A stretch of 64,000 nucleotides of DNA from Eudoraea algarum. Its GTDB lineage: Bacteria; Bacteroidota; Bacteroidia; Flavobacteriales; Flavobacteriaceae. Of this stretch, positions 1,875-48,010 are shown piece after piece; position 1 is the first letter of the stretch, and each line of letters opens with the position of its first letter. The stretch spans positions 392,277-456,276 of the forward strand of contig NZ_JBNGOQ010000003.1 in the NCBI RefSeq assembly GCF_050589645.1. Direction: 5' to 3'. Below the pieces are notes generated by a model. It was not told the origin of the DNA. It saw only the letters and a list, made by a program, of their open reading frames with translations, and searched no databases. The translations under genes were made by a program, and so were the position numbers.

Positions 1875-2083
1875 ATCTGCATGTATTTACTGATTACAGT
1901 TATATAATAAGTAACTGGAGAAAGTATGAAATCACACTCTTATCTCTTTTTTGTAAAATTTTAACAAAAGTCTATACAGAAATGTAAATAGTGAAGCTTT
2001 CGGGATTTTAGCAGTATGTTCTATTGATTAAGACGTGCTTTTAAAATGATTTCAGAGCCTAAAAAATGAGTTGAAGGGAAAAA

Positions 2084-3126: not shown

Positions 3127-3981
3127 ATGAACAAACTACAGAACACACTTTTGGCTAATGCCATATTCTCAGGAATGTCAGGAATAGGGCTTCTTTTATT
3201 TCACAAAGAGATAGCGGATATTTTTTCCGTTAATTCTAGTACTACTTTTTGGATAGTAGGAATTGCACTCATCTATTTTGCTTCGACCATTACTTACGAA
3301 ATCTTTAAACAAAGACCTATACCTATTTTATTTATAATTATTCAAGACATATTATGGGTAATAGGCAGTATAATTTTACTTGTATCACAACCATTCGGCA
3401 TCTCCATTACAGGAAACTATATAATAGCTGCAATTGCATTAATCGTCTTTTTTATGGCTATTGCTCAATCTAAAGCTTTGTCCAAAGTTGACACTATAGA
3501 TGCAGACGGAAAAAAGCGATTACGCTTTAAAACAATATTCAATGCCAATGGAACAAAAGTATGGAAAGTAATATCTGATGTAGGAAATGTTTATAAAGTA
3601 GCACCAAATATTGATGATTCATCTATCGTTTCCGGTAATGGAGAGGGGATGATTAGAAGTTGTTCACATGGAAAGGATAGTTGGACAGAGACCTGCTCTT
3701 TGTGGAAAGAAGAAGAGGCCATATCGTTTGTGGTTCATACAGATAAACCAGACTATCCGTACCCATTATCTTTTCTACAAGGAGCTTGGTACATAAAGGA
3801 AATAGATAGCAACAATACTGAAGTAGAGATGATTTTTGATTTAAAATTTAAGAATAAACTACAAAATCTGTTTGTCTACCCTCTAATGAAATTCAAGTTT
3901 GGCAAATCATTCAATGTACTACTAGATAATTGGAAAGCTATTATTGAAGAACATAGCAATGGGAGCTGGTTTTTCGCATAA
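3127..3981 (+). CDS. Membrane-anchored SRPBCC (START/polyketide cyclase-like) domain protein
   Basis: About four N-terminal TM helices, then an SRPBCC-like C-terminal domain (WKVISDVGNVYKVAPNI...); a canonical Bacteroidetes -7 box TATTTTTG lies about 27 nt upstream. Confidence 0.45.
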   Translation: MNKLQNTLLANAIFSGMSGIGLLLFHKEIADIFSVNSSTTFWIVGIALIYFASTITYEIFKQRPIPILFIIIQDILWVIGSIILLVSQPFGISITGNYIIAAIALIVFFMAIAQSKALSKVDTIDADGKKRLRFKTIFNANGTKVWKVISDVGNVYKVAPNIDDSSIVSGNGEGMIRSCSHGKDSWTETCSLWKEEEAISFVVHTDKPDYPYPLSFLQGAWYIKEIDSNNTEVEMIFDLKFKNKLQNLFVYPLMKFKFGKSFNVLLDNWKAIIEEHSNGSWFFA

Positions 3982-4503
3982 TAAAGTGTACAAAAAATCA
4001 TCCAAAAACACGAAACAAATACTTTTTAACCAGCTCCTTAAGGAAAATGAAGGAATTTTATCTAAGGTGGTCAATCAATTTATTGCGAGTGAATATGATA
4101 GAAAAGATTTTAAACAGGAGATAATTTATCAATTATGGAAATCTTATGATTCATTTAGTGGTAGGTCCAAATTCAGCACTTGGATGTATAGGGTATCTTT
4201 AAATACTGCGCTTAAATATCTTAAGAAAAAGAAAAAGATAATTTCAAGTATAGGGATTGATGAGAACTTACTTCAAAAAATTGATGTAAAGCATACGAGA
4301 TTGAGGAACAAACAAAACTGATGTACGAGGCGCTATACAAATTAGATAAAATAGAAAAGGAGATGCTACTCTTATATTTAAAAGGATTAAAGCAGAAAGA
4401 AATTGCTCAAATAATGGGTTTTACGACCACCAATGTTGGAACCAAAATTGGGCGAATAAAATTAAAATTGAAAAAAATGGTTGCAAGGCAAGAATCAAAT
4501 TAA
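3944..4503 (+). pseudogene. ECF-type RNA polymerase sigma-70 factor, paralog of 10848..11339, split into a region-2 ORF (3944..4321) and a region-4 ORF (4321..4503) by a 1-nt deletion in an A run at about 4288-4290.
   Basis: Alignment to the intact paralog: restoring gtaaaagca gives ...IDVKAYEIEEQTKLMYEALYKL, colinear with ...TDVSDNTEEQQIEKLYETIKRL; the FSGRSKFSTWMYRV motif is conserved. Confidence 0.5.
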
Positions 4504-4621
4504 AGACTGTTCACTAAAAAATACCAGTAATAATAGAATACTGAATTTAAATGATTCAGTCAAAATGTGATTTTTAAATAGAAACTCATACCAATACATA
4601 TGAATCACATATTTATAAAAA

Positions 4622-5920
4622 ATGAAAGAATTTAAAAACATAAATACTATCCAAAAAATAAGCATAGTATTTATTGCTATAGGTGCAATGAGCATTTTTC
4701 CTGAGCACGGTACTTGGTTTCATAAAACATTGCAAACCCTATTTGTAGTAGGACTATTATTTTATATATATCCCATAAAAAGGAAAATGTTTAACTCTAA
4801 AATAAAAAAAACAACACTCATATTAATTTTCAGCATAGGTAGTATGGGGCTCAATGCACAAGATTATTCGGAACAAATTGAATCTTTTAACCTGAGTTTT
4901 GATGAAAAAGATTTGGGTAAGGTAAACAAACATTTAAGTAGCGAATTGAAGTTCGACCCTATTCCTGCTTCTAAGACTCCTATGATTATGAAAAATATAG
5001 TCACTAAGTTACCTAAACTAAATAGTATAAAAATAATTGAAAGTGAGAAAGGAAAGGCTAAAGTAAAGTATGATTTTGTAGGCTTAGGAATTAGGGAATC
5101 TCGTATTCACTTTGACGAAGAAGATAAGATTACAAAAATTGAACTAATAGAAAATCCTATCAGACAAGAGATGGAAGCTCAAAAAGCGATGAAGAAAAGC
5201 ATGCAGCAACCAAATACCAATGGCTTATCCAGTAAGTTTGAGAAAATTCAGTTTAAATCTATAGATAACCTAATGGTAACTGGGAATTTATATGAAATTT
5301 CTAAGGAAAATCCAATAATCTTGCTATGCCATCAAGCCGGTTACAATAAGTTTGAATACGCAGATATAGCGCCCCGTTTAAATCAATTAGGCTTCAATGT
5401 TTTAGCAATCGACCAACGTGCAGGAGGTGAATTTGCTGGGCATAAAAATGAAACTAACACACTAGCTAAGCAAAAAGGGTACACCAATCTTGATTTTTTA
5501 GATGCTGAACAAGATATAATTACGGCTATAGACTACCTTACTAATAGATACAGTAAAAAAATTGTATTATGGGGAAGTTCTTATTCTTCGAGTTTAGCTT
5601 TTATTATCGGAATGGAGAATGAAAATGTTATGGCTAGTATAGCCTTCAGTCCTGGCAACTATTTTGGCGACAAAAGACCTTTATTAGAAAATGTTCTTTC
5701 GAAGTCTAAGAAACCTTTTTTTATTACCTCTTCCAAGAATGAGGCACAAGAAATTAAACGTCTTCTTTTAAAAGATGTTCCTAAAGGAAAGGAAAGGATA
5801 CATTTCACGCCTAATTCCGAGGGATTTCATGGTTCTAGAGTTTTATGGGTTGGACAAACAGGAGCGGAAGAATATTGGTCTCAAATAAGGTCTTTTCTAG
5901 ATAATTATCGTAAGATATAA
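4622..5920 (+). CDS. Alpha/beta hydrolase (dienelactone hydrolase-like), secreted. The likely true start is 4787 (MFNSKIKKTTLILIFSIGSMGLNAQ signal peptide).
   Basis: C-terminal hydrolase fold (LLCHQAGYNKFEYADIAPRLNQLGFNVLAIDQRAGGE...WGSSYSS); in-frame ATG at 4787 precedes a signal peptide. Confidence 0.5.
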   Translation: MKEFKNINTIQKISIVFIAIGAMSIFPEHGTWFHKTLQTLFVVGLLFYIYPIKRKMFNSKIKKTTLILIFSIGSMGLNAQDYSEQIESFNLSFDEKDLGKVNKHLSSELKFDPIPASKTPMIMKNIVTKLPKLNSIKIIESEKGKAKVKYDFVGLGIRESRIHFDEEDKITKIELIENPIRQEMEAQKAMKKSMQQPNTNGLSSKFEKIQFKSIDNLMVTGNLYEISKENPIILLCHQAGYNKFEYADIAPRLNQLGFNVLAIDQRAGGEFAGHKNETNTLAKQKGYTNLDFLDAEQDIITAIDYLTNRYSKKIVLWGSSYSSSLAFIIGMENENVMASIAFSPGNYFGDKRPLLENVLSKSKKPFFITSSKNEAQEIKRLLLKDVPKGKERIHFTPNSEGFHGSRVLWVGQTGAEEYWSQIRSFLDNYRKI

Positions 5921-5998
5921 CTAGGCCAAAATAATGCTGTTCCAAATATGAAAACTATAGAACAGCAAGAATAATCATTTTTAAATATCCTTAGTCTG

Positions 5999-6940
5999 AT
6001 GAAGCATTTAGCTTTGCAATTATTATTCTGTTTTCTTATCATTTTCACCTCCAATGCTCAAAATGATATCCTAAATAGTAAGGTTTATGAACTGGATAGT
6101 TCAAGTTCACTTCTGTCAAGAATAGGAGAAACACCTTCGAAAATACTTGATAGATTTAGAGATGCTGGTATGAATCCTTCCAGACATACACTCACTAGGG
6201 AAGAACATAAAATAGTGTCTTCTGCATTAAATGAATTACCTCCTTTGCATCAAAGGGTACTGAAAAAACATTTGTTGAGAATAAGTTTTTTAGATAATAT
6301 GCCCAATACTGCGTTTACAGCACCTATAAGCCCAAATGATTCTATAAAGCTATACGCAATTACCGTCAGAGCTGAAATTTTAAACCAAACCGTATCAGAA
6401 TGGCTTACCGAAAAGGAACGCAATTGTTTTGATTTTTCAAATACTAATTTAAATGTATCTATTAGAGCCGGCGAGCTAAGTGCAATCTTGTATGTATTGA
6501 TTCATGAGGCTACTCATATTGTTGATGGAGCTTTGAACTTAACACCTCAATATACCGTTCCACAAAGGGAAATAGAAAATTCTTTAAAATCTAACCCATT
6601 TACGGCGAACATTTGGAAAAATAGGATTGAACCTATTGAAATATTTCAAAATAAGATGTTAGACGAAATTTACTTTAAAAGCAGAAAGAAAATGCCCATA
6701 AACAAGTCTCAAGAAATATATGGTGCACTTAAAAATTCACCTTTTGTTTCTTTGTATGGACGTAACAGCTATCATGAAGATTTGGCCGAAATTGCGACTA
6801 TATATCATTTTACCAAAAAGTTAAAACAAGAATATCAAATAGTAATTGCTAAAGGGAACTCTAAATTATTCTCATATGAACCTATGAAGTCTATGCTTGT
6901 AAAAAATAGACTTCCTCAATTAGAATATTTCTATTTATGA
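5999..6940 (+). CDS. Secreted hypothetical protein with an HExxH motif (LIHEATHIVD); putative zinc metallopeptidase-like
   Basis: Signal peptide MKHLALQLLFCFLIIFTSNAQ; HEATH motif. Confidence 0.4.
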   Translation: MKHLALQLLFCFLIIFTSNAQNDILNSKVYELDSSSSLLSRIGETPSKILDRFRDAGMNPSRHTLTREEHKIVSSALNELPPLHQRVLKKHLLRISFLDNMPNTAFTAPISPNDSIKLYAITVRAEILNQTVSEWLTEKERNCFDFSNTNLNVSIRAGELSAILYVLIHEATHIVDGALNLTPQYTVPQREIENSLKSNPFTANIWKNRIEPIEIFQNKMLDEIYFKSRKKMPINKSQEIYGALKNSPFVSLYGRNSYHEDLAEIATIYHFTKKLKQEYQIVIAKGNSKLFSYEPMKSMLVKNRLPQLEYFYL

Positions 6941-6955
6941 CATTTAGTTTCGTTA

Positions 6956-7711
6956 TCAAAAAGACATAATCTCACCATCATCTGGAATTAATATTCTATC
7001 TCTTTCTACACCATTTTTATCAGCATATAGCCTCAATGATTCCCTAGTTACTCTACAAAAGTCTATAGCCTCCAAATGGACTGCAACTAATTTAGAATTA
7101 GGAGAAAGCTTAGATAATTCAATAGTTTGTTTTTCGTCCATATGTACAGGATAATCTTCAAAATTCGGGATGATTCCACCACCTGAATTAGTCACTATAA
7201 GCTCTGGTGAGAATTTTTCCACGGCATTTCTCACTTCATCAATTAAGATACTATCACTCACAATATAAACAGTGGGTTCCTCTTTAGCCTGTATTACATA
7301 TCCAGAAACTTGCCCCATATGAGGTAGGATTGGGCCACTCCCATGTTGTCCGGCTATTCTGGTAATAGATAGGCCCTCCCATTCCAGTTCTTTTTGAATC
7401 ACACTTACATTATTGAAATGCTTAATCATAAAACTCTCATCTTCTGGTGTACAGAAGAGTTTTGTGTCTTTAGATAAGGTCTTGATTGCTTTTTCATCTA
7501 GGTGGTCAGGATGTAAATGAGTAATCAAAATTCCATCTAAGTTTTCTATTATTTCAGAAATTAACATTGTTAAATTGACAATCGGATTTTTTTGTAAGCC
7601 AGGAGCGAATGGAGGGAAAGTTTCTTTGATACTGAACATGGGGTCAATTAGTAAAACTTTGCCAGCATAGTTCAATTTTAAAGTTGCATTACGGATTAGT
7701 TGAAGTTCCAT
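6956..7711 (-). CDS. MBL-fold metallo-hydrolase
   Basis: HxHxDH motif (ITHLHPDHLD). Confidence 0.7.
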   Translation of the reverse strand: MELQLIRNATLKLNYAGKVLLIDPMFSIKETFPPFAPGLQKNPIVNLTMLISEIIENLDGILITHLHPDHLDEKAIKTLSKDTKLFCTPEDESFMIKHFNNVSVIQKELEWEGLSITRIAGQHGSGPILPHMGQVSGYVIQAKEEPTVYIVSDSILIDEVRNAVEKFSPELIVTNSGGGIIPNFEDYPVHMDEKQTIELSKLSPNSKLVAVHLEAIDFCRVTRESLRLYADKNGVERDRILIPDDGEIMSF

Positions 7712-7725
7712 AGTCGTTGTTATGT

Positions 7726-8748
7726 TTAGTAGATTTTATTTAGAACCAGTTTTCCTTTTACTCGGTTTGTTTTTAGATATTCAAAAGCCTCTTCATATTT
7801 TTCTAGTGGATATGTCCTGTCAATGATGGGTTTTATCTTTCCTTTCTCTATTAACCCTTTGACTATTTCCAATTGCTTGCCATCAGATTCTGTCAGAAAA
7901 CGATAATAGTTGACACCCTTAACGAGTGCTAAAATTTTGATTGGCAGGCTCATTAGACCAAATAAAGGGTAAAGTAAGAGTTTGTGAATAATATTGATTT
8001 TCAATTTGAGTACAAAACGAATGTCTGGTGGCCCACCAATACTTACAACCGTGCCACCTTTTTTAGCGGCTAGGATTGACCTCAATGGATTGTTGTCACC
8101 AATCAGATTGAATACAATATCATATTTTTCACCATCATCTAAAAAACTCTCAAAATCATAACAAATGACTCTGTTTGCGCCTAAAATTTCTACTAAAACT
8201 TCATTTTTATGGCTGGTTACTGCTGTAATATTAAGTCCCAAGGATTTAGCATATTGAATGGCAAAAGTACCAACACCCCCAGAACCAGAATCAATCAGAA
8301 TACTTTGTCCAGCTTTAGCCTTTGCATACTTGCTTATAGCCTGGATACAGGTCAAAGCTGCTAATGGAATTGTTGCTGCTGCTTCGTGAGTAATGTTTTT
8401 AGGTTTTGAAGCAACGTGGTCTGGGTCGGCAAGGACAAATTCGGCAAATCCACTTCCCTTATGCAATGGTAGTCGTGAAAAAACTTCCTCGCCATTTTTA
8501 AATGAAGTTACCATGCTGCCAGTCTTTCTTATGATACCGCAGATATCAAATCCAAGCTTTGGTTTCTTCACTATTGATGGTAGAATCGCCTTTAAATCGC
8601 CTTTGGCTATTTTAATGTCAATTGGGTTTAAAGCAATGGCCTTCACCTCAATCAAGACCTCATTATCGTTAGGGATGGGTTTATCAATTTCTGAAAAGGA
8701 TAAAGCTTTTCCAATATCGCCATATTTTTTTAAAAGTAAACTTTTCAT
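7726..8748 (-). CDS. NAD(P)-dependent alcohol dehydrogenase / quinone oxidoreductase (MDR superfamily)
   Basis: GroES-like N-terminus plus a Rossmann GSGGVG motif (DSGSGGVGTFAIQYAK). Confidence 0.7.
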   Translation of the reverse strand: MKSLLLKKYGDIGKALSFSEIDKPIPNDNEVLIEVKAIALNPIDIKIAKGDLKAILPSIVKKPKLGFDICGIIRKTGSMVTSFKNGEEVFSRLPLHKGSGFAEFVLADPDHVASKPKNITHEAAATIPLAALTCIQAISKYAKAKAGQSILIDSGSGGVGTFAIQYAKSLGLNITAVTSHKNEVLVEILGANRVICYDFESFLDDGEKYDIVFNLIGDNNPLRSILAAKKGGTVVSIGGPPDIRFVLKLKINIIHKLLLYPLFGLMSLPIKILALVKGVNYYRFLTESDGKQLEIVKGLIEKGKIKPIIDRTYPLEKYEEAFEYLKTNRVKGKLVLNKIY

Positions 8749-8749
8749 G

Positions 8750-10156
8750 CTATGAGTTTACAGTTTCTAAAATCCAAGTCGATATTGCTTGCAAAGCAGC
8801 AGGGTTAAAAGTTTCCTCTAGCTTTTGATATTCACTCATCTTACAGGAGTTGCATTTTTGGAAAAAGTGATTTAGACCTTCTAGTTCTTTGACCTTAAAG
8901 TTTTTTGTTTTTCCATTCTTTAAGGCTTTTTCGATAGCGATTAAATGAATATCTGCAGGTACCTGTATGTCTTTTGAGCCATTGATTGCTAGTACTGAAC
9001 ATTTTACTTTTTTGAACTCCTCTGCGGGATTGTAACTGTAGAAATATCGGGACCAAGGAGTGACCCTAGATTCTACTAATCCTTTGATGTTTTCATCTGT
9101 TTTTTCTTTTGAACCTAGCATTGGTCTTAAAATTGGCGCAATAGTTTTTTGATAATGTGCCGTCAGTTCTGTCTTTATTTTCTCGATATCGCCTCTTTGA
9201 GATGCGATTTTTATAGCTTCTCGAATGGCATCTTCATAGGCTTTTTCACTTGGTACAGGAAAGGGTCTTAAGTTTTTTGAAACTATTAACGATGTTTCAC
9301 TACCTTGAATACCGGCGCCAGCAAGACTTACTATGAAAGCTACATTCTTCTTCATTCTGTTGGCTACCATAGGCGCTATAATAGCACCTTCACTATGTCC
9401 AATCAGACCAATTTCACCTACATCATTTCTGGTTAATAAATATTCAACCGCACATTCAACATCGCTTGCAAAATCAGCTGTGGTAGCTGTTGAGAAGTCG
9501 CCGGTGGATTTGCCAAACCCTCTGTCATCAAAACGAAGTACTGCTATACCCTGGTTAGTAAGGTGGTCGGCTAAAACTAGAAATGTCTTATGACCAAAAA
9601 CCGTTTGGTCTCTATCTTGACCGCCACTTCCGCTAATGAGTACAACAGCTGGAAACTTAGAACCTTCCTTTGGCTTGGTGAATGTACCAGCCAGTTTTAC
9701 ATTTGCTGCTTCATTTTCAAACGACACATTTTCGGAGAGATATGGATATGGTTTTTTCGGTTCTTGGGGTTTTCCACTTCCTTCAATTTCCACTTGTTCT
9801 CCTTCCTTTCTTTTTAATGTAAGGGGTATTTTATTAGCACCTTCCTGAAATTTTCCTTCAAATTCATTTTTACTGTCATTATATTTTCCCCGATAACCCA
9901 TTCCAAGATTGGAACCATCTACGATAAGTTCACCATCCGAAAATGTGGTTTGTTTAGGTTTAAGACCTTCCACCCTTTGTGAAGGGATGGAAACTGTAGT
10001 GCTCAATTCACCATTTATTTCCTCAATGTCGAATATGAAAACGATTTCCTTGCCTTTTCCAAGAGTCACTTTGCCTTGCCAGACACCTGATATTTCTTGG
10101 GCATGAATTACTGTTGTTGTTATAAGCATTAATGCTATTCCTATTGTGTTTTTCAT
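8750..10156 (-). CDS. Secreted alpha/beta hydrolase with an N-terminal lipocalin-like domain
   Basis: Signal peptide; GxSxG nucleophile elbow (LIGHSEGAIIAP). Confidence 0.6.
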   Translation of the reverse strand: MKNTIGIALMLITTTVIHAQEISGVWQGKVTLGKGKEIVFIFDIEEINGELSTTVSIPSQRVEGLKPKQTTFSDGELIVDGSNLGMGYRGKYNDSKNEFEGKFQEGANKIPLTLKRKEGEQVEIEGSGKPQEPKKPYPYLSENVSFENEAANVKLAGTFTKPKEGSKFPAVVLISGSGGQDRDQTVFGHKTFLVLADHLTNQGIAVLRFDDRGFGKSTGDFSTATTADFASDVECAVEYLLTRNDVGEIGLIGHSEGAIIAPMVANRMKKNVAFIVSLAGAGIQGSETSLIVSKNLRPFPVPSEKAYEDAIREAIKIASQRGDIEKIKTELTAHYQKTIAPILRPMLGSKEKTDENIKGLVESRVTPWSRYFYSYNPAEEFKKVKCSVLAINGSKDIQVPADIHLIAIEKALKNGKTKNFKVKELEGLNHFFQKCNSCKMSEYQKLEETFNPAALQAISTWILETVNS

Positions 10157-10242
10157 TTTTACTTAAATTTTGATATTAATTATCTATTACAGCTTACGAT
10201 AGAAGCTATTTTTTTGTTCTTATTTGTAAATTTTATTTCTAT

Positions 10243-10842
10243 TTAATCTTCGAGCTCTTTTAGTATATTTTGAGCATCTGCTGTGATTTTTACGTAGCAG
10301 CCATAAGCCCATCTTGCAAAGAAGAAAAGCGCAATTAGAGCTATGGGAATAAACCATAGTAGATTATTGCTTTCGCCTGCGAAAAAGTCTTTTCCTTTGC
10401 CTATTTTTAAAGCTAAGGGTATCGCTGTTAACATAAATATAGCTGATAAAACTATGCCCCATTTTTGAACTAAGAGGAAATGGGTTCTTCGCTTGGTGAA
10501 TTCAATTATAGTTTGTTTGTAGTTTCTTTTTGCCATATCCATATTATTCATTCTATAGACTGCTGTCAGTGAGAGAATTGGTAATATGGTCATTATTATG
10601 ATACTTAGTACTGCACATATTTGAAGTGGTAACGTATCAAAAAGCTGGATGTTCCATATCACGATTATCAATGCTAAAAATAAAACTGCTGTTCCTGTAC
10701 CCTCATATTTGAGTATCGATTTCAGCTTATTGCTGTATTTTATCTTTACTACATCCATAATCACTTTATCTGTTAAGATTCTTTGATTGTCAATTTTTGT
10801 GTTGAGCTTGGACCAAGTTTCTTGTAATTCTGCTAGTTCCAT
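10243..10842 (-). CDS. Putative membrane anti-sigma factor, immediately downstream of the ECF sigma gene
   Basis: Short cytoplasmic N-terminus, then about four TM helices; 5-nt gap to the sigma gene. Confidence 0.35.
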   Translation of the reverse strand: MELAELQETWSKLNTKIDNQRILTDKVIMDVVKIKYSNKLKSILKYEGTGTAVLFLALIIVIWNIQLFDTLPLQICAVLSIIIMTILPILSLTAVYRMNNMDMAKRNYKQTIIEFTKRRTHFLLVQKWGIVLSAIFMLTAIPLALKIGKGKDFFAGESNNLLWFIPIALIALFFFARWAYGCYVKITADAQNILKELED

Positions 10843-10847
10843 TTCAG

Positions 10848-11339
10848 TTATTTATTTTGCATCAATTTTTTTAATTTCTCTTTTATCCTACTAATTCTAG
10901 TTCCTACGTTGGTTGTAGTGAAACCAATTATTTCGCCAATTTCATCGTAACTTTTGTTCTCCAGATAGAGCATAATAATCCCTCTCTCTAAATTGTTTAA
11001 CCTTTTAATGGTTTCATACAGCTTTTCTATTTGTTGTTCCTCAGTGTTATCACTAACATCAGTTCGCTGGAATAGTTTCTCATCGATTTCAATTCCACTG
11101 GTAATTGTTCTTTTTTTCTTTTTGATATAAACCATAGCAGTATTCAATGCTACGCGATACATCCAAGTGCTGAATTTGGACCTACCACTAAATGAACCAA
11201 AAGACCGCCATAACTGGTATATCATCTCCTGTCTTAAATCCTGCGCATCTACCTGAGAATTTGTGTACAAGGTTGATACCTTGAAAAGGATACCATCATT
11301 ATCATTTATGAATTGAACAAATTGTTCTTGGTTAGGCAT
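10848..11339 (-). CDS. RNA polymerase sigma-70 factor, ECF subfamily
   Basis: Sigma-70 region 2 (FSGRSKFSTWMYRVALNTA) and region 4 (YDEIGEIIGFTTTNVGTRISRIKEKL). Confidence 0.75.
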   Translation of the reverse strand: MPNQEQFVQFINDNDGILFKVSTLYTNSQVDAQDLRQEMIYQLWRSFGSFSGRSKFSTWMYRVALNTAMVYIKKKKRTITSGIEIDEKLFQRTDVSDNTEEQQIEKLYETIKRLNNLERGIIMLYLENKSYDEIGEIIGFTTTNVGTRISRIKEKLKKLMQNK

Positions 11340-11400
11340 TCAGAAAATGGATTGTTTATTTTATTAGTATTACAAAGTCTAAAAAAATCACAATTAATAC

Positions 11401-11700
11401 TCATTTTTTTGAGACAAATACTTCTAATTTTTTAAAGCCCTTTTCTCTGTAAGGCACTAGTTTTTTGTACTCCTCACTAGAAAATAATTTAACAAAGGCT
11501 TCTTGACTTGGGAATTCCACTACCATTATAAAGTCCGGTTTTTCATCACCAACAATAGTTTGGGCTATGGGATATTTCTCTACAACTGTAGCATCAACTG
11601 TTTCGTAAAGCGTACGCATATTGGTTGCATAATGGTCGAAAGATTCCCGTTCTTGAGGGTTTACAAATCCAATGATGATAAGAAAGATTTTAAAATTCAT
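11401..11700 (-). CDS. DUF1330-like (Dabb-fold) protein
   Basis: 99 aa; VVEFPSQEAFVKLFSSEEYKKLVPYR resembles the DUF1330 core. Confidence 0.4.
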   Translation of the reverse strand: MNFKIFLIIIGFVNPQERESFDHYATNMRTLYETVDATVVEKYPIAQTIVGDEKPDFIMVVEFPSQEAFVKLFSSEEYKKLVPYREKGFKKLEVFVSKK

Positions 11701-11894
11701 TCTTTGTGTTTTTATTATTCAAGATATAAGTGTACACTTTATCCAAAAAATCACAATTGATATGAATAAATTTTCAGTTATATGTTTTTTGGCATTTTAG
11801 CATCTTAAATAGGAAGAGAGTAATTAATGAGTTAATGATGCCAAAAAGGATTATAAGCGCATAGAATGAAATAATTATTTTACAGCTTAAAATA

Positions 11895-11930
11895 AAGGTC
11901 TAGATTAATTTAATCTAGACCTTTAAAAAA
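11895..11930 (-). terminator. Perfect 14-bp hairpin (AAAGGTCTAGATTAA/TTAATCTAGACCTTT) flanked by A/T runs; likely terminator of the dehalogenase-like gene
   Basis: Seen directly in the sequence. Confidence 0.4.
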
Positions 11931-12100
11931 CATCAACCACCATCAATCAAAAAACATATTGCAGTTTTCTTTTTTAATAACTTTATCTTTTTTGTTTATA
12001 AAGTGTTCACAGAATTAAAAAAGAGTAACATTATATTATAGCTTCATAATATGAATATTTTAAAGATATCTTGCTTGTGTTTGCATTCCAACTTAAACTG

Positions 12101-13249
12101 TCATAAATTGTCTAACCAGTTACTTATCGCAACTGCGGCCTCTTCTGCTGCTCCGTTGGTTTCATTTTGCCAGTAGTGTAGAGATGGCTTAATCATATCA
12201 TACACCGAAACATTATCTATGTTTTGCCATCCACCTACCTGACCAGATACACTACCTGTTACTACATTTCTCATGGTAATGGGAAGATTGGAAATAGGGT
12301 CCACGGCACCTGGTGGGGCAAAGTCTCCTGACAAGACAAAACTTGGATTTCCAAAAAGGACTAAGCGAGGTTTATCAGTCTGCTGAAAATACTGTGCGAT
12401 TTCAATAAAGTCTGCTCTGTTTTGGTCATTAATTTCCAAAATTCCTAAACAGTCCCTATCAAAATGTAGAGCTTGTCGGGATTCAGGTGTTAGAAATGGC
12501 GACCGAAACTCAGTCACTTCATCCTCATTTAATTGTACAATACTAGTTCGACCAAAAGCTGGGTCTGGCATTCCATTAAAATCATTATTAAGTAATAAGG
12601 TTTCTATAAAAAAGTTGTCTTCCAAAACCAATTGGTCAGCATTAGGACCTCGCAATTCTTGAAGAAATGGTGGAAGAAAATCTTTAGGAAATGGTCCAGA
12701 AAATACTACCTCAAACATTGCTGCTGCATCCACTTTTTCAGGGTATCTTGCAGCAAATAATCCTCCAACAAACCCACCCATATCGTGATTGAGTAATCTT
12801 ACCTTTGGTAGATTAAGTGCCTCAACAAATTCATTAATGTATTCCACATATTCACCAGAACATGGTGTACCACCTGTTTTTTCGGATTTCCCAAAGTTTG
12901 GAAGGTCTATCGCAATAACACGATTATTTCTTGATAGTTCAGGAATCATCTTTCGCCATAGATAACTACTTGTTGGAAGTCCATGGACCATAATTAGGGG
13001 TATCTCGCCCTCCCCTTCGTCCAAATAATGCATTTCCAGACCTGACTCTAGAATAATGAAGTTTGATAGATATGGATAATTTGCGAATGCTATTTGTCTA
13101 TTTTTATTTACGCTATCATCATCACTATTACATGAAATAAAAACGACAGTAAAAATTACTAGGATTATTGAAAGGACAGATGTCTTGACCATGTTAGATA
13201 ATTTTTTCATTGTTTGGAGTTTGTTTATATATGACATTTCGACAATCAC
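12101..13249 (-). CDS. Haloalkane dehalogenase-like alpha/beta hydrolase lipoprotein
   Basis: Lipoprotein signal (VVFISCNSDDD); IMVHGLPTSSYLWRKMIPEL...IDLPNFGKSEK is typical of alpha/beta-hydrolase fold-1 / haloalkane dehalogenases. Confidence 0.6.
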   Translation of the reverse strand: MIVEMSYINKLQTMKKLSNMVKTSVLSIILVIFTVVFISCNSDDDSVNKNRQIAFANYPYLSNFIILESGLEMHYLDEGEGEIPLIMVHGLPTSSYLWRKMIPELSRNNRVIAIDLPNFGKSEKTGGTPCSGEYVEYINEFVEALNLPKVRLLNHDMGGFVGGLFAARYPEKVDAAAMFEVVFSGPFPKDFLPPFLQELRGPNADQLVLEDNFFIETLLLNNDFNGMPDPAFGRTSIVQLNEDEVTEFRSPFLTPESRQALHFDRDCLGILEINDQNRADFIEIAQYFQQTDKPRLVLFGNPSFVLSGDFAPPGAVDPISNLPITMRNVVTGSVSGQVGGWQNIDNVSVYDMIKPSLHYWQNETNGAAEEAAVAISNWLDNL

Positions 13250-13315
13250 TTTATCTTAAGTGAAATTGTGAAGAAGAAATGGGAGCCAAAATAGCCCCAA
13301 ATTCAAAGTTGTTTA

Positions 13316-14137
13316 TTACTCTTGAAAGGAGAACTTTGTAAAGACAAAGTCAGCTTTTGCTACTGCGCTCATCATCAGAGGCGCTGCTTTCGTTTTAAAT
13401 TCTTTATTAGCAAATAGTTTTTCATTATCCTCAACGCTATCCCATTCTATTATAAACTGCATCTGTGGTTCGTAGGTAGCTTGACCTTTGGAATCTGTTG
13501 AGATAAGTCTAAGTACAAATTCGGGATACGTACCACCATAATTACGCTTTATGGGTTCTGATACTTCAAAATACTTTTTAATGCTTGTCTGAGCTTGTTC
13601 ACCGGCTTTCAGGTCTACACCTCCAAATTCATAGACTTTATCAGAACGAAATGTCACAATTTTGTCTTTTGCCACCTCGAAGTAGCCAAGATTCATTGTA
13701 TTGATGGCTTCATCTCTGATAGGTGCAATTTTCTTGTACTGTTTGTTCTTCAAAAATTTTAGTCTAGATTCTGCAGTAGGCCATTCGAATATGGCTACCA
13801 TATTTCCTGGTAAAGACTTGCTCTTATTTTTAACTACACCAAAACCGCCAATCATTTTTCCACCATATTGGGCTGCCAATTCCAGAGCTTTTGGAAAATA
13901 TTGTTTATTTAATTGTTCCATCTTGTCTGGTTTGATGTCTGCAAAGGCTAGTTCGTACACTTTTCCTTTTTTAAATAATATAGCTTGAGTCTTTACATCA
14001 TGAGATTCACTGTTTTCAATTTTGGCGTTGGCTACTTTTTTTGGCAACAGTAGCATTGCTACATATTGGTTCTGTGCAATATTATTTTGAACAATAAATA
14101 GTACTGACAAAAATGTTGCTAGTGATAAGAATTTCAT
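13316..14137 (-). CDS. Secreted protein with two tandem DUF1330-like domains
   Basis: Signal peptide; two internal repeats of about 110 aa resembling 11401..11700 (..IIEWDSVEDNEKLFANKEFK..). Confidence 0.35.
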   Translation of the reverse strand: MKFLSLATFLSVLFIVQNNIAQNQYVAMLLLPKKVANAKIENSESHDVKTQAILFKKGKVYELAFADIKPDKMEQLNKQYFPKALELAAQYGGKMIGGFGVVKNKSKSLPGNMVAIFEWPTAESRLKFLKNKQYKKIAPIRDEAINTMNLGYFEVAKDKIVTFRSDKVYEFGGVDLKAGEQAQTSIKKYFEVSEPIKRNYGGTYPEFVLRLISTDSKGQATYEPQMQFIIEWDSVEDNEKLFANKEFKTKAAPLMMSAVAKADFVFTKFSFQE

Positions 14138-14329
14138 ATTTTTCTTTTTTTCTATGTTTTATAATTTTCTTTTTTTCTATACTTAAATAGAAGACAAGTA
14201 TATTTTGAACAAACATAGCCGCTTAAATTTTCGCTACATTATTTATGTGGACAATGGGGAAATTTGATTAAGCATAAAGAATGAAGAGTGGTAATCGGGA
14301 AATATGGGGTAAATGGGAACTTTTTTTTG

Positions 14330-16084
14330 CTAGTTCTGCTTTATAATGTACTCTTTGAGTAATTTATATCTTGCCCTTGATACGGGTATTTGGATTGGGA
14401 TGTCTGGACTTTTAAAATAGGATGTTTTGGAATTACCATAAAGCACTAAATGGTTATTAAGGTTTATAATAAATGATTTGTGGCACCGTTGTATATAATC
14501 GAAACCCCTTAACTGAGACTGAATACTTTTAAGAGTTGCCCTTAAAGTCCTTTTCTCTATTGTACCCATGTTTTTCCAATATAGAGTTGAATAATTGTCA
14601 TTTCCTTCTGCGTACAGAATCTTTTGCGGGTCTATTTCAAATGTCTCTGAGGTTTGCGTATTAATGGTGATTATTTGCGATGGCTTCTCCCTTTGATTTG
14701 TCTTATAAGTTGAATTATCTAGGTTAATTAAATGTAACAAGCTTGTATATTTAAATGTGTTTCTTATTGTATCAAAAATCGGATTACATAAAAACTCACC
14801 AGGAAGTAGACCTAGATTAAACCTAATGCTTCTTTCAATGTGTTTGAAAAACTCTTTTTCTTGATTAAACCCTAACCTGATAATCCCAATGGCATAATTG
14901 AAAAGTCCAGTATTTTGTTGTAAATCTAAATCTCGAACTTCATTTTCTAGTTGCATTGCTTCAGCATAGAAGCCAGATTTTGCAAAAGCAAAAGCCAAGT
15001 ATGCATAATAAATAGGATTATTTTTTTCGGTCTCCTTACAATATTTGAAATCTTCAATTGAACTTTCGATATGCCCCAGAAAGAGATTTGTCAATCCACG
15101 TAATTCAATAATAGGATGAGCATTCTTGTCAATTTTTAAAGCATCAGTGATGTACTTTTTAGCATTGACATAGTCCTTCATATAAATAAGGATTCGAATC
15201 ATCATTGCATAATGAGGTATTGCTAACCCTTCTTCTCTAATGGTTATTTCAGCATGATGCTTTGCTTTGTTGAACTGTTTTTTATGAATATGGTTCATTG
15301 CAGAAGCATGATGTGCCTTAATGTTTTCGCTATTCAATTTTAGTGCTTGTGTCAAGTTAATTTCTGCCTGATGAAAATTCCTATCAAAAAAAATATCGAT
15401 AAAAGCAGCAGAGACGTAAGATTCGGACCTTTTATTATTTAAAACCAAAGAACGATTGGAAAATTTTCTACCAGTTTCAAAAGCCAAAATAGGATTGTCA
15501 TATCCCATGATACCAATAATACTATAACAGTCAGCTATTGCTGAATGTGATACTGCCAGGGACTTGTTTTCTTTTATAGACTTTTTGAAAAAAGAAATAG
15601 CCAAAAGCATTTCTGGATACGTATACCGATGCCAATGATACAATCCTCTTAAATAATATTCTCTAGCTTTTGTCTTATCACTTGTGTCTTTAAATGAAAA
15701 GTTAGATTCACCACCATCTATAATATTCAAGACATTCTTTACAATCAATTTAACCGATATAGTCCATTTTTCTATTTGAACCAAAGTGTCAAAAGCCAAC
15801 AGTTCCTCTTTGGTATCTATCTTAAACAACCGAGTAAAAATTATGTACTCACCATTGATTTGTTTTAGGTTACCTTCTATAAGATAGTCTACTTGATGCT
15901 CGGTTTTTAATTTTTCTAAGGGGATGGGATTAGCTTTGACATATAAACTAGTAGTCCTTGAAGCCGTTTTTATTTGGGAAGATTTTGAAATAAGGTAAAT
16001 AGATTCTTCCAAAATACCCTCTGATAGATGGTGTAAATCATCAAGTTTATCAATATGGTATGGAAGTATAAGTACTTTTTTCAA
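14330..16084 (-). CDS. LytTR-family DNA-binding regulator with an N-terminal small domain and central TPR repeats
   Basis: C-terminal LytTR motif (YIQRCHKSFIINLNNHLV); TPR-like helical repeats in the middle. Confidence 0.6.
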   Translation of the reverse strand: MKKVLILPYHIDKLDDLHHLSEGILEESIYLISKSSQIKTASRTTSLYVKANPIPLEKLKTEHQVDYLIEGNLKQINGEYIIFTRLFKIDTKEELLAFDTLVQIEKWTISVKLIVKNVLNIIDGGESNFSFKDTSDKTKAREYYLRGLYHWHRYTYPEMLLAISFFKKSIKENKSLAVSHSAIADCYSIIGIMGYDNPILAFETGRKFSNRSLVLNNKRSESYVSAAFIDIFFDRNFHQAEINLTQALKLNSENIKAHHASAMNHIHKKQFNKAKHHAEITIREEGLAIPHYAMMIRILIYMKDYVNAKKYITDALKIDKNAHPIIELRGLTNLFLGHIESSIEDFKYCKETEKNNPIYYAYLAFAFAKSGFYAEAMQLENEVRDLDLQQNTGLFNYAIGIIRLGFNQEKEFFKHIERSIRFNLGLLPGEFLCNPIFDTIRNTFKYTSLLHLINLDNSTYKTNQREKPSQIITINTQTSETFEIDPQKILYAEGNDNYSTLYWKNMGTIEKRTLRATLKSIQSQLRGFDYIQRCHKSFIINLNNHLVLYGNSKTSYFKSPDIPIQIPVSRARYKLLKEYIIKQN

Positions 16085-16267
16085 ATCAATATCAATTTTA
16101 CTTAATAAAACCTAATTAAAGATTAATAGCTCGAACTTAACATAAAAAATACATTTAGTTTTCATTGTTGCCTCTTGAATTTCATAAAAACCTTTTGATG
16201 CACCCTATATGAAAAATGAAGTCTGGAGATTTTTTTAGAGAGCTTCTGGATAATTTTTCAAACCGAA

Positions 16268-16768
16268 TCAGAAAAGTAGTTTTTTAACTTTTTCAAGAAA
16301 CAATTCAACGGCAACACCAAAGCCCAATTCGTCGGGTTCTATAAATAATCGGATTTTCCTATGAGGAGAAGAAGAATTTTCATAGTCAACATCAAAAATA
16401 AGAACTTCTGGGACTATTATTGATAATTTGGTAGTTTCGAAGAATCCGATTTCCCGAAATCTATCTTGTTGTATACTCCAAATACCACTATTGGAATATA
16501 CTGTATCATTTCTAACAAGTCGGTACTCCATGTTGTTGAAGTCATTGAAACTAAAATTACCCAAATTCCCAACCTCATCAACTACTGCAAGTCCATTAAG
16601 TCCATTTTCAATAAACTCACCATAAAATGACTTGATTTGCACAACTTCCCATTGTCCGATAAGGAAATCAACATCATTTTGGAGGTCATCTGGTCGGCAG
16701 GAAGCAAAACAAAAAATCAGCAGAGCCATTATAGAGGGTAAGCTGCGATATAAAATTTTAAAGTTCAT
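16268..16768 (-). CDS. Lipocalin-like lipoprotein, hypothetical
   Basis: Lipobox LIFCFASC; 166 aa. Confidence 0.35.
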   Translation of the reverse strand: MNFKILYRSLPSIMALLIFCFASCRPDDLQNDVDFLIGQWEVVQIKSFYGEFIENGLNGLAVVDEVGNLGNFSFNDFNNMEYRLVRNDTVYSNSGIWSIQQDRFREIGFFETTKLSIIVPEVLIFDVDYENSSSPHRKIRLFIEPDELGFGVAVELFLEKVKKLLF

Positions 16769-16965
16769 TCTTTTTCTTTTTATGGTGCACCAGTATTTGT
16801 ATTCTGAATTGACAGAAAATCACATATTTTCATTTTTCTTGAGAATATCGATGTATTTATACTCCTCAGAAAAGTTAAAATTTTAAAGAGGTCAGATTTT
16901 TTTTGGTATTATTTATCCTTACCGGGAACTAATGGATATATAGATTAATCTTAAAAGTATAAAGT

Positions 16966-17400
16966 ATGAAATCTAAAAAAAATGCTCACTTATTTTTGAT
17001 ACTAAGCTTGTTACTAATTACAGGATGTAATAATGAGGATGATTCAAATTCAACTAAGATAAACCCTGTTCCATTGGTCTTCAATGGGGATTTTGATTCA
17101 GATAAATCTAAACTAGACGATTTGTTAAATGATATTAAAACTATATCCAGCAGTGTAATTTGAACTACATCCGAGGATTGGCTTATTACTCCTATCGGGA
17201 CAAAATCTTGTGGAGGTCCATCAGGATATTTGGCATATTCAAAGAAAATCGATATGTCACTTTTTGCAGAATATGTTGAGATTTATAGAATCAGTGAGGA
17301 TATATTCAATAGGAAATGGGAAATTATATCCACTTGTGATATTGAACCAGAACCGATTGGAGTTAAGTGCGAAAATGGGACTGCTATATTAGTATTTTAA
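16966..17400 (+). pseudogene. Lipoprotein gene interrupted by an in-frame TGA at 17161-17163. The same frame stays open for 79 more codons (TTSEDWLITPIGTKSCGGPSGYLAY...ENGTAILVF*).
   Basis: Lipobox LLITGC; no start codon downstream of the TGA; a 79-codon open frame in roughly 30% GC DNA is unlikely by chance. Confidence 0.4.
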
Positions 17401-17459
17401 AGTGCAATAGTTATATGAAGAATATATTAATTAGGTTTTTTATTAATATACCTGGTCAT

Positions 17460-17822
17460 CTAGGGTTTTGGTAATCTCGGATAAAACTGTACTAGAGTAT
17501 CCTTTCGTTCGATTAGCATGATTTTACATTCATCTACAGAAGATACGCGATGGTTAATTCCTTTTTGAACTACAAATAAGTCACCGGTATTCATATAAAA
17601 TGCCTTTGATGATTCTATTTCCATTAATAGCTTTCCTTCTAATAAATAGAACAGCTTGTCACTGTTTTCGTGATTGTGCCATGGAACTTTATCTCCTTTT
17701 ATCTTAACCACTTTAATATACTCATTATTAAGAGAGGCAATAATCTTAGGTGAGAACCAATCTTCTAGCAAGTGTGATTCATATAGTGCGTTCTTATTGA
17801 TATTTGACTTTTTCACAACCAA
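17460..17822 (-). CDS. Cupin domain protein
   Basis: WHNHENSDKLFYLLEGKL cupin motif. Confidence 0.6.
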   Translation of the reverse strand: MVVKKSNINKNALYESHLLEDWFSPKIIASLNNEYIKVVKIKGDKVPWHNHENSDKLFYLLEGKLLMEIESSKAFYMNTGDLFVVQKGINHRVSSVDECKIMLIERKDTLVQFYPRLPKP

Positions 17823-17939
17823 TTAGTTAATGTTCATATCAAAAAATCACAGCATACATTTATTATATCTTTTCTAAAAACTAAAAAGTGTGATTTTATT
17901 TCCTCAAACTAAACTAATGAGATTGATAAGATTGGATAT

Positions 17940-18395
17940 ATGAATATTCGGAGTGCAACATTACAGGATAAAGAGAAGATTATTGAACTAGTGAAAACTG
18001 GGCTCAAAGAATTTGGGTTTGAGTACTCATCCACAACTTCAGAGTTAGACCTAGAGGACTTTGCCGAGGTTTACTTAAACATTGAAAACACTTTTTTAAT
18101 TATGGAAACTTCTCAGGGTAAATTGGCAGCTACCGGTGCATTACTAAAAGAAAGAAATCATGATAGTTATAAAATCCAGAAAATGTATGTTTCCAAAATG
18201 TATAGAGGACTAGGGTACGGTAAATTAATGCTGGAGCAATTTATACAATTAGCAAAAAGTAATAAGGCTCAAATTATTTTATTAGAAACTTCCAATCATA
18301 TGAAAACTGCTATTGGTTTATACAAAAGTTACGGTTTTAAAGAAACCTGTGTGATTCCTAAATCTCCTCGTTACAATATTACAATGACAAAATAA
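17940..18395 (+). CDS. GNAT family N-acetyltransferase
   Basis: YRGLGYGKLMLEQFIQLAK acetyl-CoA binding motif. Confidence 0.7.
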   Translation: MNIRSATLQDKEKIIELVKTGLKEFGFEYSSTTSELDLEDFAEVYLNIENTFLIMETSQGKLAATGALLKERNHDSYKIQKMYVSKMYRGLGYGKLMLEQFIQLAKSNKAQIILLETSNHMKTAIGLYKSYGFKETCVIPKSPRYNITMTK

Positions 18396-18469
18396 ATATG
18401 ATTTTTTGTGATTTTATACAAAAACTACATACTAATAGGGCAAGAAAAATATTTTAAATCTAAAAAATT

Positions 18470-18574: not shown

Positions 18575-18588
18575 AGGATTTTTAAAGT

Positions 18589-23152: not shown

Positions 23153-23603
23153 ATTAAGTTTTGAATAAAGACAAGCTTCACTTTTTGATAGTAGTGAAGC
23201 TTGTTAGATGCAGAAAGGGCAAAATAAAGTATTTGTAAATTCATTATATTCTGCGCAAAATTCTAAAGTCTTACTATATAATTAGTATTAATTGGATTTC
23301 ATTTATCACAAAAATTTATTGATTTTTTTTACTCCAATTGGTTACAGCCAACTTTTCCATTTCCGCCTCATTGCTTAACCACGGCACGATAGTATTAAAT
23401 GGTTTCCCTTCCCAAAAATCATTATAAAACAAGTATAGTTTACCATTGCGAAAGCGCAATAACCATTAAATTATACTCAAACTAGCTCATAACTTTAATT
23501 TTTCCTGTATGTCAAAATGATTTTTTGACTTTTTTTATCTGAGAGTTAGCATTAGATTTATAATTAGTCTGTTTTCATTTTCTTTTATGTCTAGAATTAA
23601 TTG

Positions 23604-46480: not shown

Positions 46481-46565
46481 ATCTAGATCGGTTTAGGGTT
46501 AAAATATAGGGACCACCAAAAACCGTGCCTTGGTGGTCCCATTCCTATATCAGTTCCGCTAGCTC

Positions 46566-47996: not shown

Positions 47997-48010
47997 TGCT
48001 CTATTTTTTA

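Follow-up and report, generated by a model that had tools for sequence, protein, structure and literature searches.

The motif TGTGATTTT, which recurs in a genomic island of about 25 kb, very probably constitutes the −35 element and T-tract of a promoter read by RNA polymerase carrying the ECF22-type sigma factor that the island encodes. This interpretation, drawn from sequence comparisons, follows from the group to which the sigma factor belongs, the homology of its anti-sigma factor, the −35 element and register shared with ECF22 promoters elsewhere, and the activation of a Xanthomonas promoter by ECF22 sigmas.

Organization of the element

The window analysed, a stretch of DNA of 64 kb in its entirety, contains eight copies of TGTGATTTT against 1.34 expected from dinucleotide shuffles, none of 100 shuffles reaching eight. 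All eight fall between 4.5 and 18.5 kb and seven are intergenic: three on the plus strand, starting at 4566, 17889 and 18407, and four on the minus strand, at 11384-11392, 11747-11755, 16816-16824 and 17843-17851. An exact search for the 9-mer thus recovered, in place, all seven sites listed in an earlier note on this DNA. The eighth copy, at 10282 on the plus strand, was taken as a chance occurrence because it lies antisense within the anti-sigma ORF and lacks the second box described below. The intergenic DNA of the island amounts to 3,293 nt and holds seven copies, where Markov models of orders 0 to 3 predict 0.1-0.4 (P ~1e-8). The possibility raised in the earlier note that the motif might be equally frequent in AT-rich DNA is therefore set aside, shuffles and Markov models alike falling far below the observed count.

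Each of the seven intergenic copies is directed at the adjoining downstream gene. Measured from the first T of TGTGAT, the distance to the start codon is 51-63 nt for six genes (those for the hydrolase, the sigma factor, the DUF1330 protein, the lipoprotein, the GNAT acetyltransferase and a small TM ORF) and only 29 nt for the cupin gene with its annotated TTG, which bears out the positional bias claimed earlier, including the closer position in the latter case. A distance of 51-63 nt was found at seven of the eight sites scored, all of them intergenic and co-oriented with their genes; it suits a −35/−10 promoter with a short leader. The 14-mer AATTGTGATTTTTT (plus strand, AAAAAATCACAATT) is, as originally reported, identical at the sigma and DUF1330 sites.

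A feature missed in the earlier note is a second box, AC[N][A/T]AT and mostly ACTAAT, separated from the 9-mer by exactly 15 nt in seven sites out of seven, two of which carry the weaker variants ACCAAT and ACAAAT. The chance of finding this box at one offset in all seven sites is ~1e-15. The pattern TGTGAY-N18-ACWWAT is matched eight times in the 64 kb against 0.05 expected, each time in intergenic DNA of the island. Since the second box occurs at a fixed spacing of 15 nt in all seven sites, the element is, by its sequence organization, a −35/−10-type promoter, TGTGATTTT-N15-ACTAAT, with TGTGATTTT representing the −35 half only. When a position weight matrix (PWM) trained only on sites from foreign genomes was applied to the window, the seven sites emerged as the top seven of the 64 kb, with scores of 17-32; among the best scores of 100 simulated island-like sequences of 24 kb, the mean was 7.8 and the maximum 19.8. 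Two further, weaker copies on the minus strand, beginning at 1936 and 23310, bring the number to nine in the ~25-kb island, whereas the flanking host DNA, ~50 kb, contains none. Scans of the 6-24 kb interval for sigma-70 −35/−10 motifs and terminators gave 81 promoter-like matches where 83 were expected, and were thus uninformative.

Candidate promoters of the island

The best PWM match (32 bits), at 11363..11392 on the minus strand, is the promoter by which the ECF sigma operon is predicted to be autoregulated. It reads TGTGATTTT-N15-ACTAAT, has its TGTGAT 53 nt ahead of the ATG at 11339 and is conserved at loci L002, L082 and L084; a site ahead of the sigma gene is a hallmark of ECF autoregulation. 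The putative promoter of the DUF1330 gene (11401-11700) lies at 11726..11755 on the same strand, 55 nt before the ATG, with the sequence TGTGATTTT-N15-ACTTAT, and alignment of this upstream region with the same three loci revealed conservation only at the boxes themselves and around the start codon. On the plus strand, a candidate promoter at 4566..4595 (TGTGATTTT-N15-ACCAAT; PWM score 17.7, two-box score 21.4) precedes the gene for a membrane-anchored alpha/beta hydrolase (4622-5920) and probably serves ORF 5999-6940 as well.

The remaining four exact copies are each identified by the 9-mer, the second box and the PWM. The predicted promoter of the lipoprotein gene (16268-16768) spans 16795..16824 on the minus strand and reads TGTGATTTT-N15-ACAAAT. 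That of the cupin gene (17460-17822), TGTGATTTT-N15-ACTAAT at 17822..17851 on the minus strand, has its −10-like box abutting the annotated TTG start with no room for a leader, which would imply either a leaderless mRNA or a mis-called start. Back to back with it, a plus-strand site at 17889..17918 presumably serves the GNAT acetyltransferase gene (17940-18395). The site at 18407..18436 (plus strand, 31.9 bits) precedes a 34-aa TM ORF (18470-18574) and would extend its control to the XRE HTH gene (18589-18786) and the Asp/Glu racemase gene (18792-19421).

The two added sites are on the minus strand. One, TGTGATTTC-N15-ACTTAT at 1907..1936, lies 62 nt before a split YHS-domain gene (1874 downwards) and has a two-box score of 14.5. 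The other, at 23281..23310, is a weaker candidate in which the T-tract is lacking (TGTGATAAA-N15-ACTAAT; PWM score 14.7, two-box score 18.1), upstream of a 31-aa ORF, a hairpin and gene 22223-23152; the Maribacter sigma promoters at loci L031, L032 and L043 likewise read TGTGACAAA.

A 12-mer, TGTGATTCATAT, also occurs antisense at 4598-4609 and 17773-17784. Neither copy is accompanied by a second box, and the 12-mer was treated as chance or unexplained.

The island sigma factor and the reading of the motif

The proposed reader of the motif is a 163-aa ECF22-type sigma factor encoded at 10848..11339 on the minus strand, with Sigma70_r2 (E 7e-12) and Sigma70_r4_2 (E 2.5e-9) as its only Pfam domains and a score of 92.8 bits against the sigma70-ECF family TIGR02937 (cutoff 42.9). 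In a blastp comparison with 43 representatives of 37 of the 43 original ECF groups (ECF06-09, 41 and 42 being left out), the best matches were ECF22_4450 (120 bits) and ECF22_1147 (95 bits), followed by ECF33 (66 bits). By sequence, then, the protein is closest to ECF22 among the groups compared; ECF22 is said to be a group of Staron 2009.

The gene for a predicted 199-aa anti-sigma factor of the AS22 type (10243..10842, minus strand) starts 5 nt after the sigma gene. The protein has no Pfam match; read by eye, its sequence displays about four hydrophobic, TM-like stretches. As pairwise BLAST against AS22 gave a marginal match only (E 0.001), a profile-profile comparison was needed: hhalign matched 47 Bacteroidota homologues of the anti-sigma factor to 61 AS22-like ORFs, representing the Xanthomonas AS22 family, with a probability of 98.6% and an E value of 9.8e-16 over 190 columns. 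NCBIfam offered no specific family for the sigma factor, the anti-sigma factor, the lipoprotein or ORF 5999-6940. The distal genes of the operon (6956..10156, minus strand; intergenic gaps of 1-86 nt) encode an S9/S15-like hydrolase (8750-10156), a Zn-dependent dehydrogenase (7726-8748) and an MBL-fold protein (6956-7711), and the five-gene order recurs at loci L082 and L084-L086.

Conservation of the element was assessed at the 80 loci that the sigma family retrieved from Bacteroidota (631 kb scanned). Homologues of the anti-sigma factor are present at 46 of these loci, and the bipartite motif lies 46-62 nt (mostly ~50) before the start of the sigma orthologue at 44. Only nine other matches were found in the 631 kb, several of them ahead of a gene, for a DUF1330 or a TM protein, that immediately precedes the sigma gene. 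More distant relatives (L055, L059, L067, L078 and L080) have TGTAAC...ACTAAC or ACTTAT, which suggests a continuum with classical ECF promoters, such as those of Escherichia coli sigma-E (GGAACTT-N16-TCAAA) and Bacillus subtilis sigma-X (TGTAAC-N17-CGAC) and sigma-W (TGAAAC-N16-CGTA). The present system resembles classical ECF regulons in its sigma/anti-sigma operon with a promoter of its own, the rigid spacer of its bipartite promoter, the T-rich stretch following the −35 core and the envelope- or detoxification-type genes concerned, but differs in having GAT rather than AAC as the −35 core and a −10 without the CGT core.

The element was also recognized outside Bacteroidota. On high-GC metagenome contigs, TGTGA is present in 69 of 78 regions upstream of ECF22 sigma genes, the typical form being TGTGATTTTTT-N-GCGAATCAT, with the same −35 element in the same register. 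The −10-like boxes, ACTAAT here and AATCAT there, occupy the same register and are identical at four of six positions (A.T.AT); judging from this alignment, ACTAAT could be a lineage-specific −10 variant of the ECF22 box, its recognition by an ECF22-type sigma2 domain being extrapolated because the two boxes differ. An alignment shifted by 3 nt, pairing CTAAT with CGAAT, was judged less likely given the rigidity of ECF spacers. In the data listed by Rhodius 2013 (PMC3817407), two ECF22 sigmas induced the Xanthomonas promoter Pecf22_up1147 (TTGTGAGGAAT...GCGAATCAT) 54-fold and 267-fold in E. coli, other sigmas among those listed giving ~1-fold, and AS22 proteins repressed ECF22 sigmas 6- to 36-fold. 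The island and Xanthomonas systems share a two-domain sigma factor (34% identity over the full length), a homologous multi-pass anti-sigma factor encoded directly downstream and, upstream of the sigma gene, a TGTGA(T) −35 with T-tract in the same −35/−10 register. They differ in the −10-like box (ACTAAT against (GC)GAATCAT), in the host, here a low-GC flavobacterium, and in the number of promoters, at least nine in 25 kb here and there only the autoregulatory one known.

The island contains a second ECF22-like sigma gene (3944..4503, plus strand), 78% identical in nucleotide sequence to the first over 144 nt and adjoining, upstream, one of the motif-bearing genes. Overlap between ECF regulons being common (PMC9723704), the promoters might be of the ECF22 type and yet be read mainly by this paralogue, if intact, or by another elsewhere in the genome, the product of 10848-11339 being only one of several overlapping readers. 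We regard this as improbable: a frameshift near 4275-4321 splits the paralogue, in the deposited annotation as well as in the window, and the 120 nt upstream of it contain no copy of the motif, whereas the intact sigma gene is paired with a cognate anti-sigma factor and its promoter scores highest of all.

TGTGA is also the half-site of CRP (Crp/Fnr consensus, TGTGA-N6-TCACA). Islands related to this one encode a cNMP-binding, Crp-like regulator with the motif upstream of its own gene, and LytTR, AraC and XRE proteins are encoded in the island itself. It nevertheless seems very unlikely that a factor of one of these kinds acts through the motif on ordinary sigma-A promoters. At the seven sites there is no TCACA partner at N6, no dyad and no direct repeat; the element is strictly oriented, with the second box at a fixed distance; and the motif is kept before sigma orthologues in dozens of genomes, in flanks without LytTR, AraC or XRE homologues, as well as before the ECF22 sigma genes of the high-GC contigs. 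Housekeeping sigma-A promoters of Bacteroidota (−33 TTTG/−7 TAnnTTTG) function in the same organisms at a similar distance from start codons, but their sequence is unrelated and the strict −7 box is absent from the nine island sites and from the 120 nt upstream of the motif-bearing genes. The earlier note was correct about this absence; as an argument, however, it carries no weight, since only 2 of 29 island genes, with or without the motif, have a strict TAnnTTTG in the 120 nt before them, a frequency too low for the box to tell the two classes apart. Among the island-encoded regulators proposed at the outset, the ECF sigma factor is strongly supported by the promoter of its own gene, the conservation in Bacteroidota, its ECF22 family and the shared −35 element; LytTR and AraC proteins are not needed, and are missing from almost all other loci with the motif.

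Although the island has a GC content of 31% (26.5% in its intergenic DNA) and T-runs are common, an origin of the copies from base composition or as remnants of a small repeated or mobile, MITE-like element is effectively excluded by the composition-matched counts, by flanks that are unrelated outside the two boxes, by a repeat search that found only the sigma paralogy and an internal repeat of the YHS gene, with no repeat family covering the sites, and by the independent PWM from other genomes, which picks the same sites.

A predicted ECF22 regulon

With the island sigma factor as reader, the membrane anti-sigma factor (10243-10842) would hold the sigma at rest, until an envelope or chemical signal released it. 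The freed sigma would transcribe its own five-gene operon, generating positive feedback, along with eight other nearby transcription units. The products of these units would comprise alpha/beta hydrolases, two DUF1330 proteins, a cupin, a GNAT acetyltransferase, a YHS-domain protein, a lipoprotein, an XRE regulator and a racemase. The predicted regulon includes roughly 20 of about 30 island genes; with about nine promoters, much of the island would thus be tied into one stress-type regulon. We infer that this sigma drives these nine promoters, as we do the extents of the operons and the nature of the signal. The earlier suggestion of an island-specific regulon agrees with the confinement of the sites to the island, provisionally, as the scan covered ~75 kb of a multi-megabase genome; the promoter code, on the other hand, is that of the whole sigma group and extends to several phyla.

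A broader proposal, which we hold at somewhat less than even odds, is that the sigma/anti-sigma pair may be the portable master switch of a horizontally transferred cargo island, which genes join by way of a TGTGATTTT-N15-ACTAAT cassette. If so, the promoter code would be orthogonal to the unusual housekeeping sigma of Bacteroidota, hydrolase and detoxification genes would shuffle between islands by acquiring the cassette, and the difference between ACTAAT and AATCAT would be a sign that the sigma-2 specificity loop and the promoter had co-evolved. As a concept, the concentration of ECF targets in one horizontally acquired island recalls the genomic island of Streptomyces coelicolor for which Kao et al. 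[quoted passage not shown]

In the literature on ECF sigmas, Bacteroidetes and Flavobacterium, we found no publication on this TGTGAT motif in Bacteroidota. The only ECF motif reported in a study of transcription start sites in F. psychrophilum is of the CGT type, and the text of Todor 2020 does not mention the motif. Nor did we find a publication on the physiology or regulon of ECF22, which the literature found treats as a group in classification schemes and as an orthogonal part used in synthetic biology. The window yields a predicted Bacteroidota ECF22 regulon of nine promoters and ~20 genes, mostly for hydrolases or small-molecule-modifying enzymes, and points to xenobiotic or envelope stress as candidate inducers. 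The kind of regulation is already known and current understanding is not overturned; what is gained in addition is a precise definition of the promoter, which, given its presence before the sigma gene at over half of the loci sampled, should improve the annotation of many genomes of Bacteroidota, and evidence for movement of the module together with genomic islands. Related islands, whose sigma factors are ~80% identical to the present one, were found in Allomuricauda (CP051245.1) and on TARA contigs. They carry 5-7 copies of the motif per 20 kb, in front of partly different genes, and adjoin RteC/HTH_17 genes.

A two-box element in the intergenic DNA of the island

The low-GC block at the left end of the window (~31% GC at positions 1-24,000, against 40-58% beyond) was found, from neighbouring DNA, to start ~0.5-1.5 kb to the left of the window; the island is thus of ~25 kb. 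Small enzymes and regulators predominate among its genes. The enzymes include several alpha/beta hydrolases, an MBL-fold protein and a Zn-dehydrogenase; two DUF1330 proteins and cupin, GNAT, racemase, DinB, HAD and SRPBCC proteins are also encoded, as are AraC, LytTR and XRE regulators and two ECF sigma factors.

The 9-mer TGTGATTTT occurs eight times in the 64 kb, against 1.34 expected from shuffles, none of which reached eight, and its copies are confined to the interval 4566-18415. Seven of them lie within the 3,293 nt of intergenic DNA of the island, where composition-matched Markov models expect 0.1-0.4, and all seven face the neighbouring gene. TGTGAT stands 51-63 nt from the start codon of six genes, but 29 nt from that of the cupin gene. 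The eighth copy, at 10282 on the plus strand, is antisense within a coding region, has no second box and is taken as a chance occurrence. The recurrent upstream motif described in the earlier note is therefore real and beyond chance, its frequency far exceeding that in composition-matched AT-rich intergenic DNA. Alignment of the sites revealed no similarity around them beyond the motif and a repeat search returned no family covering them. These unrelated flanks and the lack of a covering family argue that the sites are not copies of a mobile element; the Markov expectation, along with the latter result, rules out an artefact of composition or repeats.

Alignment on the 9-mer showed a second box, AC[N][A/T]AT, exactly 15 nt 3' of it in all seven sites, with the form ACTAAT in four. 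Since this hexamer class accounts for 0.4% of intergenic positions, finding it at a single offset in all seven by chance has a probability of ~1e-15, 60 offsets being allowed for. The pattern TGTGAY-N18-ACWWAT matches at eight places in the window, where the expected number is 0.05. The two-box pattern added a site at 1907-1936 (minus strand), 5' of a YHS-domain gene, and a weak one at 23281-23310 (minus strand), 5' of a 31-aa ORF and the gene at 22223-23152. Counting the hydrolase site (ACCAAT), the sites number nine, every one in the island; none was found between 24 and 64 kb of the window, nor on its left side, where 10 kb of host DNA was scanned. Across the window and these 10 kb, the predicted regulon appears island-specific, as the earlier note had supposed.

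In the general arrangement, a T-tract follows the -35-like box, and a spacer of rigid length then leads to a -10-like box, which stands ~20-30 nt before the start codon. Judged from its sequence, this is the layout of a -35/-10 promoter whose leader is short. At the cupin gene, the ACTAAT box extends as far as the initial T of the annotated TTG start codon (17822, minus strand). Because the -10-like box abuts the TTG, either the mRNA is leaderless (start near the GTG at 17816) or the start was mis-called.

Two further features were seen near the sites. An identical 12-mer, TGTGATTCATAT, lies at 4598-4609 (minus strand) and 17773-17784 (plus strand), antisense and 3' of the hydrolase and cupin promoters; neither copy has a second box, and the pair may reflect chance or a half-site. 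Between the ninth site and the gene at 22223-23152 (23152-23310, minus strand), the 31-aa ORF is accompanied by a 9-bp hairpin (AAGCTTCAC...GTGAAGCTT) and then a T-rich run, a region that could be a leader or attenuator.

The ECF sigma gene, its orthologues and group 22

One motif site lies 53 nt 5' of the sigma gene at 10848-11339 (minus strand). It is the first gene of a compact operon, in the order sigma, 199-aa membrane protein (10243-10842, minus strand), S9/S15-like hydrolase, Zn-dehydrogenase and MBL-fold protein. Eighty loci from GTDB species genomes were picked by alignment to sigma homologues. The two-box motif was present 46-62 nt (mostly ~50) before the sigma start in 44 of them; the titled records include Flavobacteriaceae, Cyclobacteriaceae, Rufibacter and Emticicia, and several MAGs labelled Chitinophagaceae, Sphingobacteriaceae or Bacteroidales also carry it. 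Only nine other matches occur across the 631 kb of these loci, several preceding a DUF1330 gene or a small TM gene immediately 5' of sigma. An anti-sigma-like gene is found in 46/80 loci, and the other island genes are not near sigma in most genomes. When the whole window was scored with a weight matrix trained solely on the foreign-genome sites, the seven sites took the first seven places, with scores of 17-32; the best score per sequence in a set of 100 simulated, island-like sequences of 24 kb averaged 7.8 and never exceeded 19.8.

Upstream of distant sigma relatives (Chryseobacterium, ~45% identity) the sequences differ, a few having TGTAAC...ACTAAC or ACTTAT; TGTAAC-type sequences are the classical ECF -35 core. 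In Chryseobacterium and relatives (loci L051-L081), a different conserved block, …TTATTATCTTCGTGCCATTATA…, takes the place of the TGTGAT motif ~20-40 nt 5' of the sigma match and contains CGT, the core that other ECF -10 boxes typically have.

The sigma was compared with 43 representatives, whose sequences Rhodius et al. 2013 (PMC3817407) give in their supplement; of the 43 original ECF groups, 37 were covered. Two ECF22 members scored 120 and 95 bits (34% identity over the full length), as opposed to 66 bits or less for other groups. Searches of Pfam and NCBIfam returned nothing for the 199-aa protein. In a profile-profile comparison, its homologues from Bacteroidota (47 sequences) matched 61 AS22-like ORFs, among them Xanthomonas AS22_4450, over 190 columns (probability 98.6%, E 1e-15). 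Rhodius et al. report that promoter Pecf22_up1147 (…GTTGTGAGGAATCGCGCTCCTGCGCGAATCATCCC…) is induced in E. coli 54-fold by ECF22_1147, 267-fold by ECF22_4450 and ~1-fold by other sigmas among those listed, and that AS22_1147 and AS22_4450 repress ECF22 sigmas 6- to 36-fold; they list group 22 as orthogonal (PMC3817407).

Eighty metagenome loci were fetched with ECF22_4450, and 69 of the 78 upstream regions examined contain TGTGA, typically as (C)TGTGATTTTTT-N-GCGAATCA(T/C). The -35 element, T-tract and register are identical to those in the window; positions 25-30 from the T of TGTGA read AATCAT in the metagenome ECF22 contigs and ACTAAT in Bacteroidota (4/6 identical). This -10 difference between phyla may map to a divergent stretch, WRSFGSFSGRSKFSTW versus WRAFPSYDPHRRFSTW, which we take to be the sigma-2 specificity loop.

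Candidate readers of the element and a proposed circuit

The earlier note had tentatively attributed recognition to an island regulator, whether ECF sigma, LytTR or AraC. The site before the sigma gene, the 44 orthologue loci and the ECF22 match strongly support the first choice as correct in substance. That this particular sigma reads these promoters is proposed from its autoregulatory placement, cross-genome conservation and family membership. Less probably, a different ECF22 paralogue is the reader; the island's second ECF22-like sigma (3944-4503, plus strand) is split by a frameshift. Binding by LytTR, AraC or XRE proteins is not required, and a search of the 80 sigma loci detected no homologues of these. 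The TGTGA core, and the Crp-like genes that related islands encode, might point to a Crp/Fnr-type operator, but this explanation fails: none of the seven sites has dyad symmetry, and the element has an orientation and two parts and is conserved 5' of sigma genes in genomes where such neighbours are absent.

The frameshift, near 4275-4321, divides the second sigma gene into ORFs of 125 aa (region 2) and 60 aa (region 4). The deposited annotation shows the gene split as well; it represents either a pseudogene or an assembly error.

In the circuit that we propose, the nine elements would be ECF22-type promoters. The membrane anti-sigma would hold the sigma until a signal frees it; the freed sigma would then amplify its own operon and turn on the surrounding units. 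The gene content (hydrolases, dehydrogenase, MBL, cupin, GNAT, DUF1330, YHS and lipoprotein) tentatively suggests a response to small-molecule or envelope stress. The motif appears to be the promoter code of a known, physiologically uncharacterised ECF group, with a regulon that, here, is predicted to be unusually dense and borne on a genomic island.

Related islands and further observations

TARA and other marine contigs encode sigmas of ~80% identity, as does Allomuricauda sp. CP051245.1. The related islands share the block YHS - DUF1330 - sigma - 199-aa protein - hydrolase - dehydrogenase - MBL, which adjoins RteC and HTH_17 genes (16007-17416 in locus L082; 16892-18301 in L084 and L085). 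Such Pfam matches are, we presume, typical of Bacteroidota integrative conjugative elements, which suggests that the related sigma islands are cargo of such an element; the window's island has no RteC or HTH_17 gene. The related 20-kb loci contain 5-7 motif copies each, preceding sigma, DUF1330, a hydrolase-cupin operon, a cNMP-binding regulator and a META-domain gene. When the DUF1330 upstream regions of the window and of three Bacteroidota loci (L002, L082 and L084) were compared, conservation was essentially limited to the two boxes and the start-codon region, a clean phylogenetic footprint.

The YHS-domain gene of the window (821-1874, minus strand) is made of two overlapping ORFs of 95 and 274 aa. 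L082 and L084 each have an unsplit homologue (343-351 aa); a frameshift is probable. A 34-aa single-TM ORF lies directly 5' of a 65-aa XRE-type HTH gene (18470-18786, plus strand) under a motif promoter; this pairing of a small membrane protein with an HTH gene is recurrent. Finally, GC content rises to 54-58% at 46000-50000, against 40-46% in most of the remaining host sequence. This stretch, with minus-strand ORFs of 476 aa (46566-47996) and 1006 aa (48011-51031), may be a second compositionally foreign segment.
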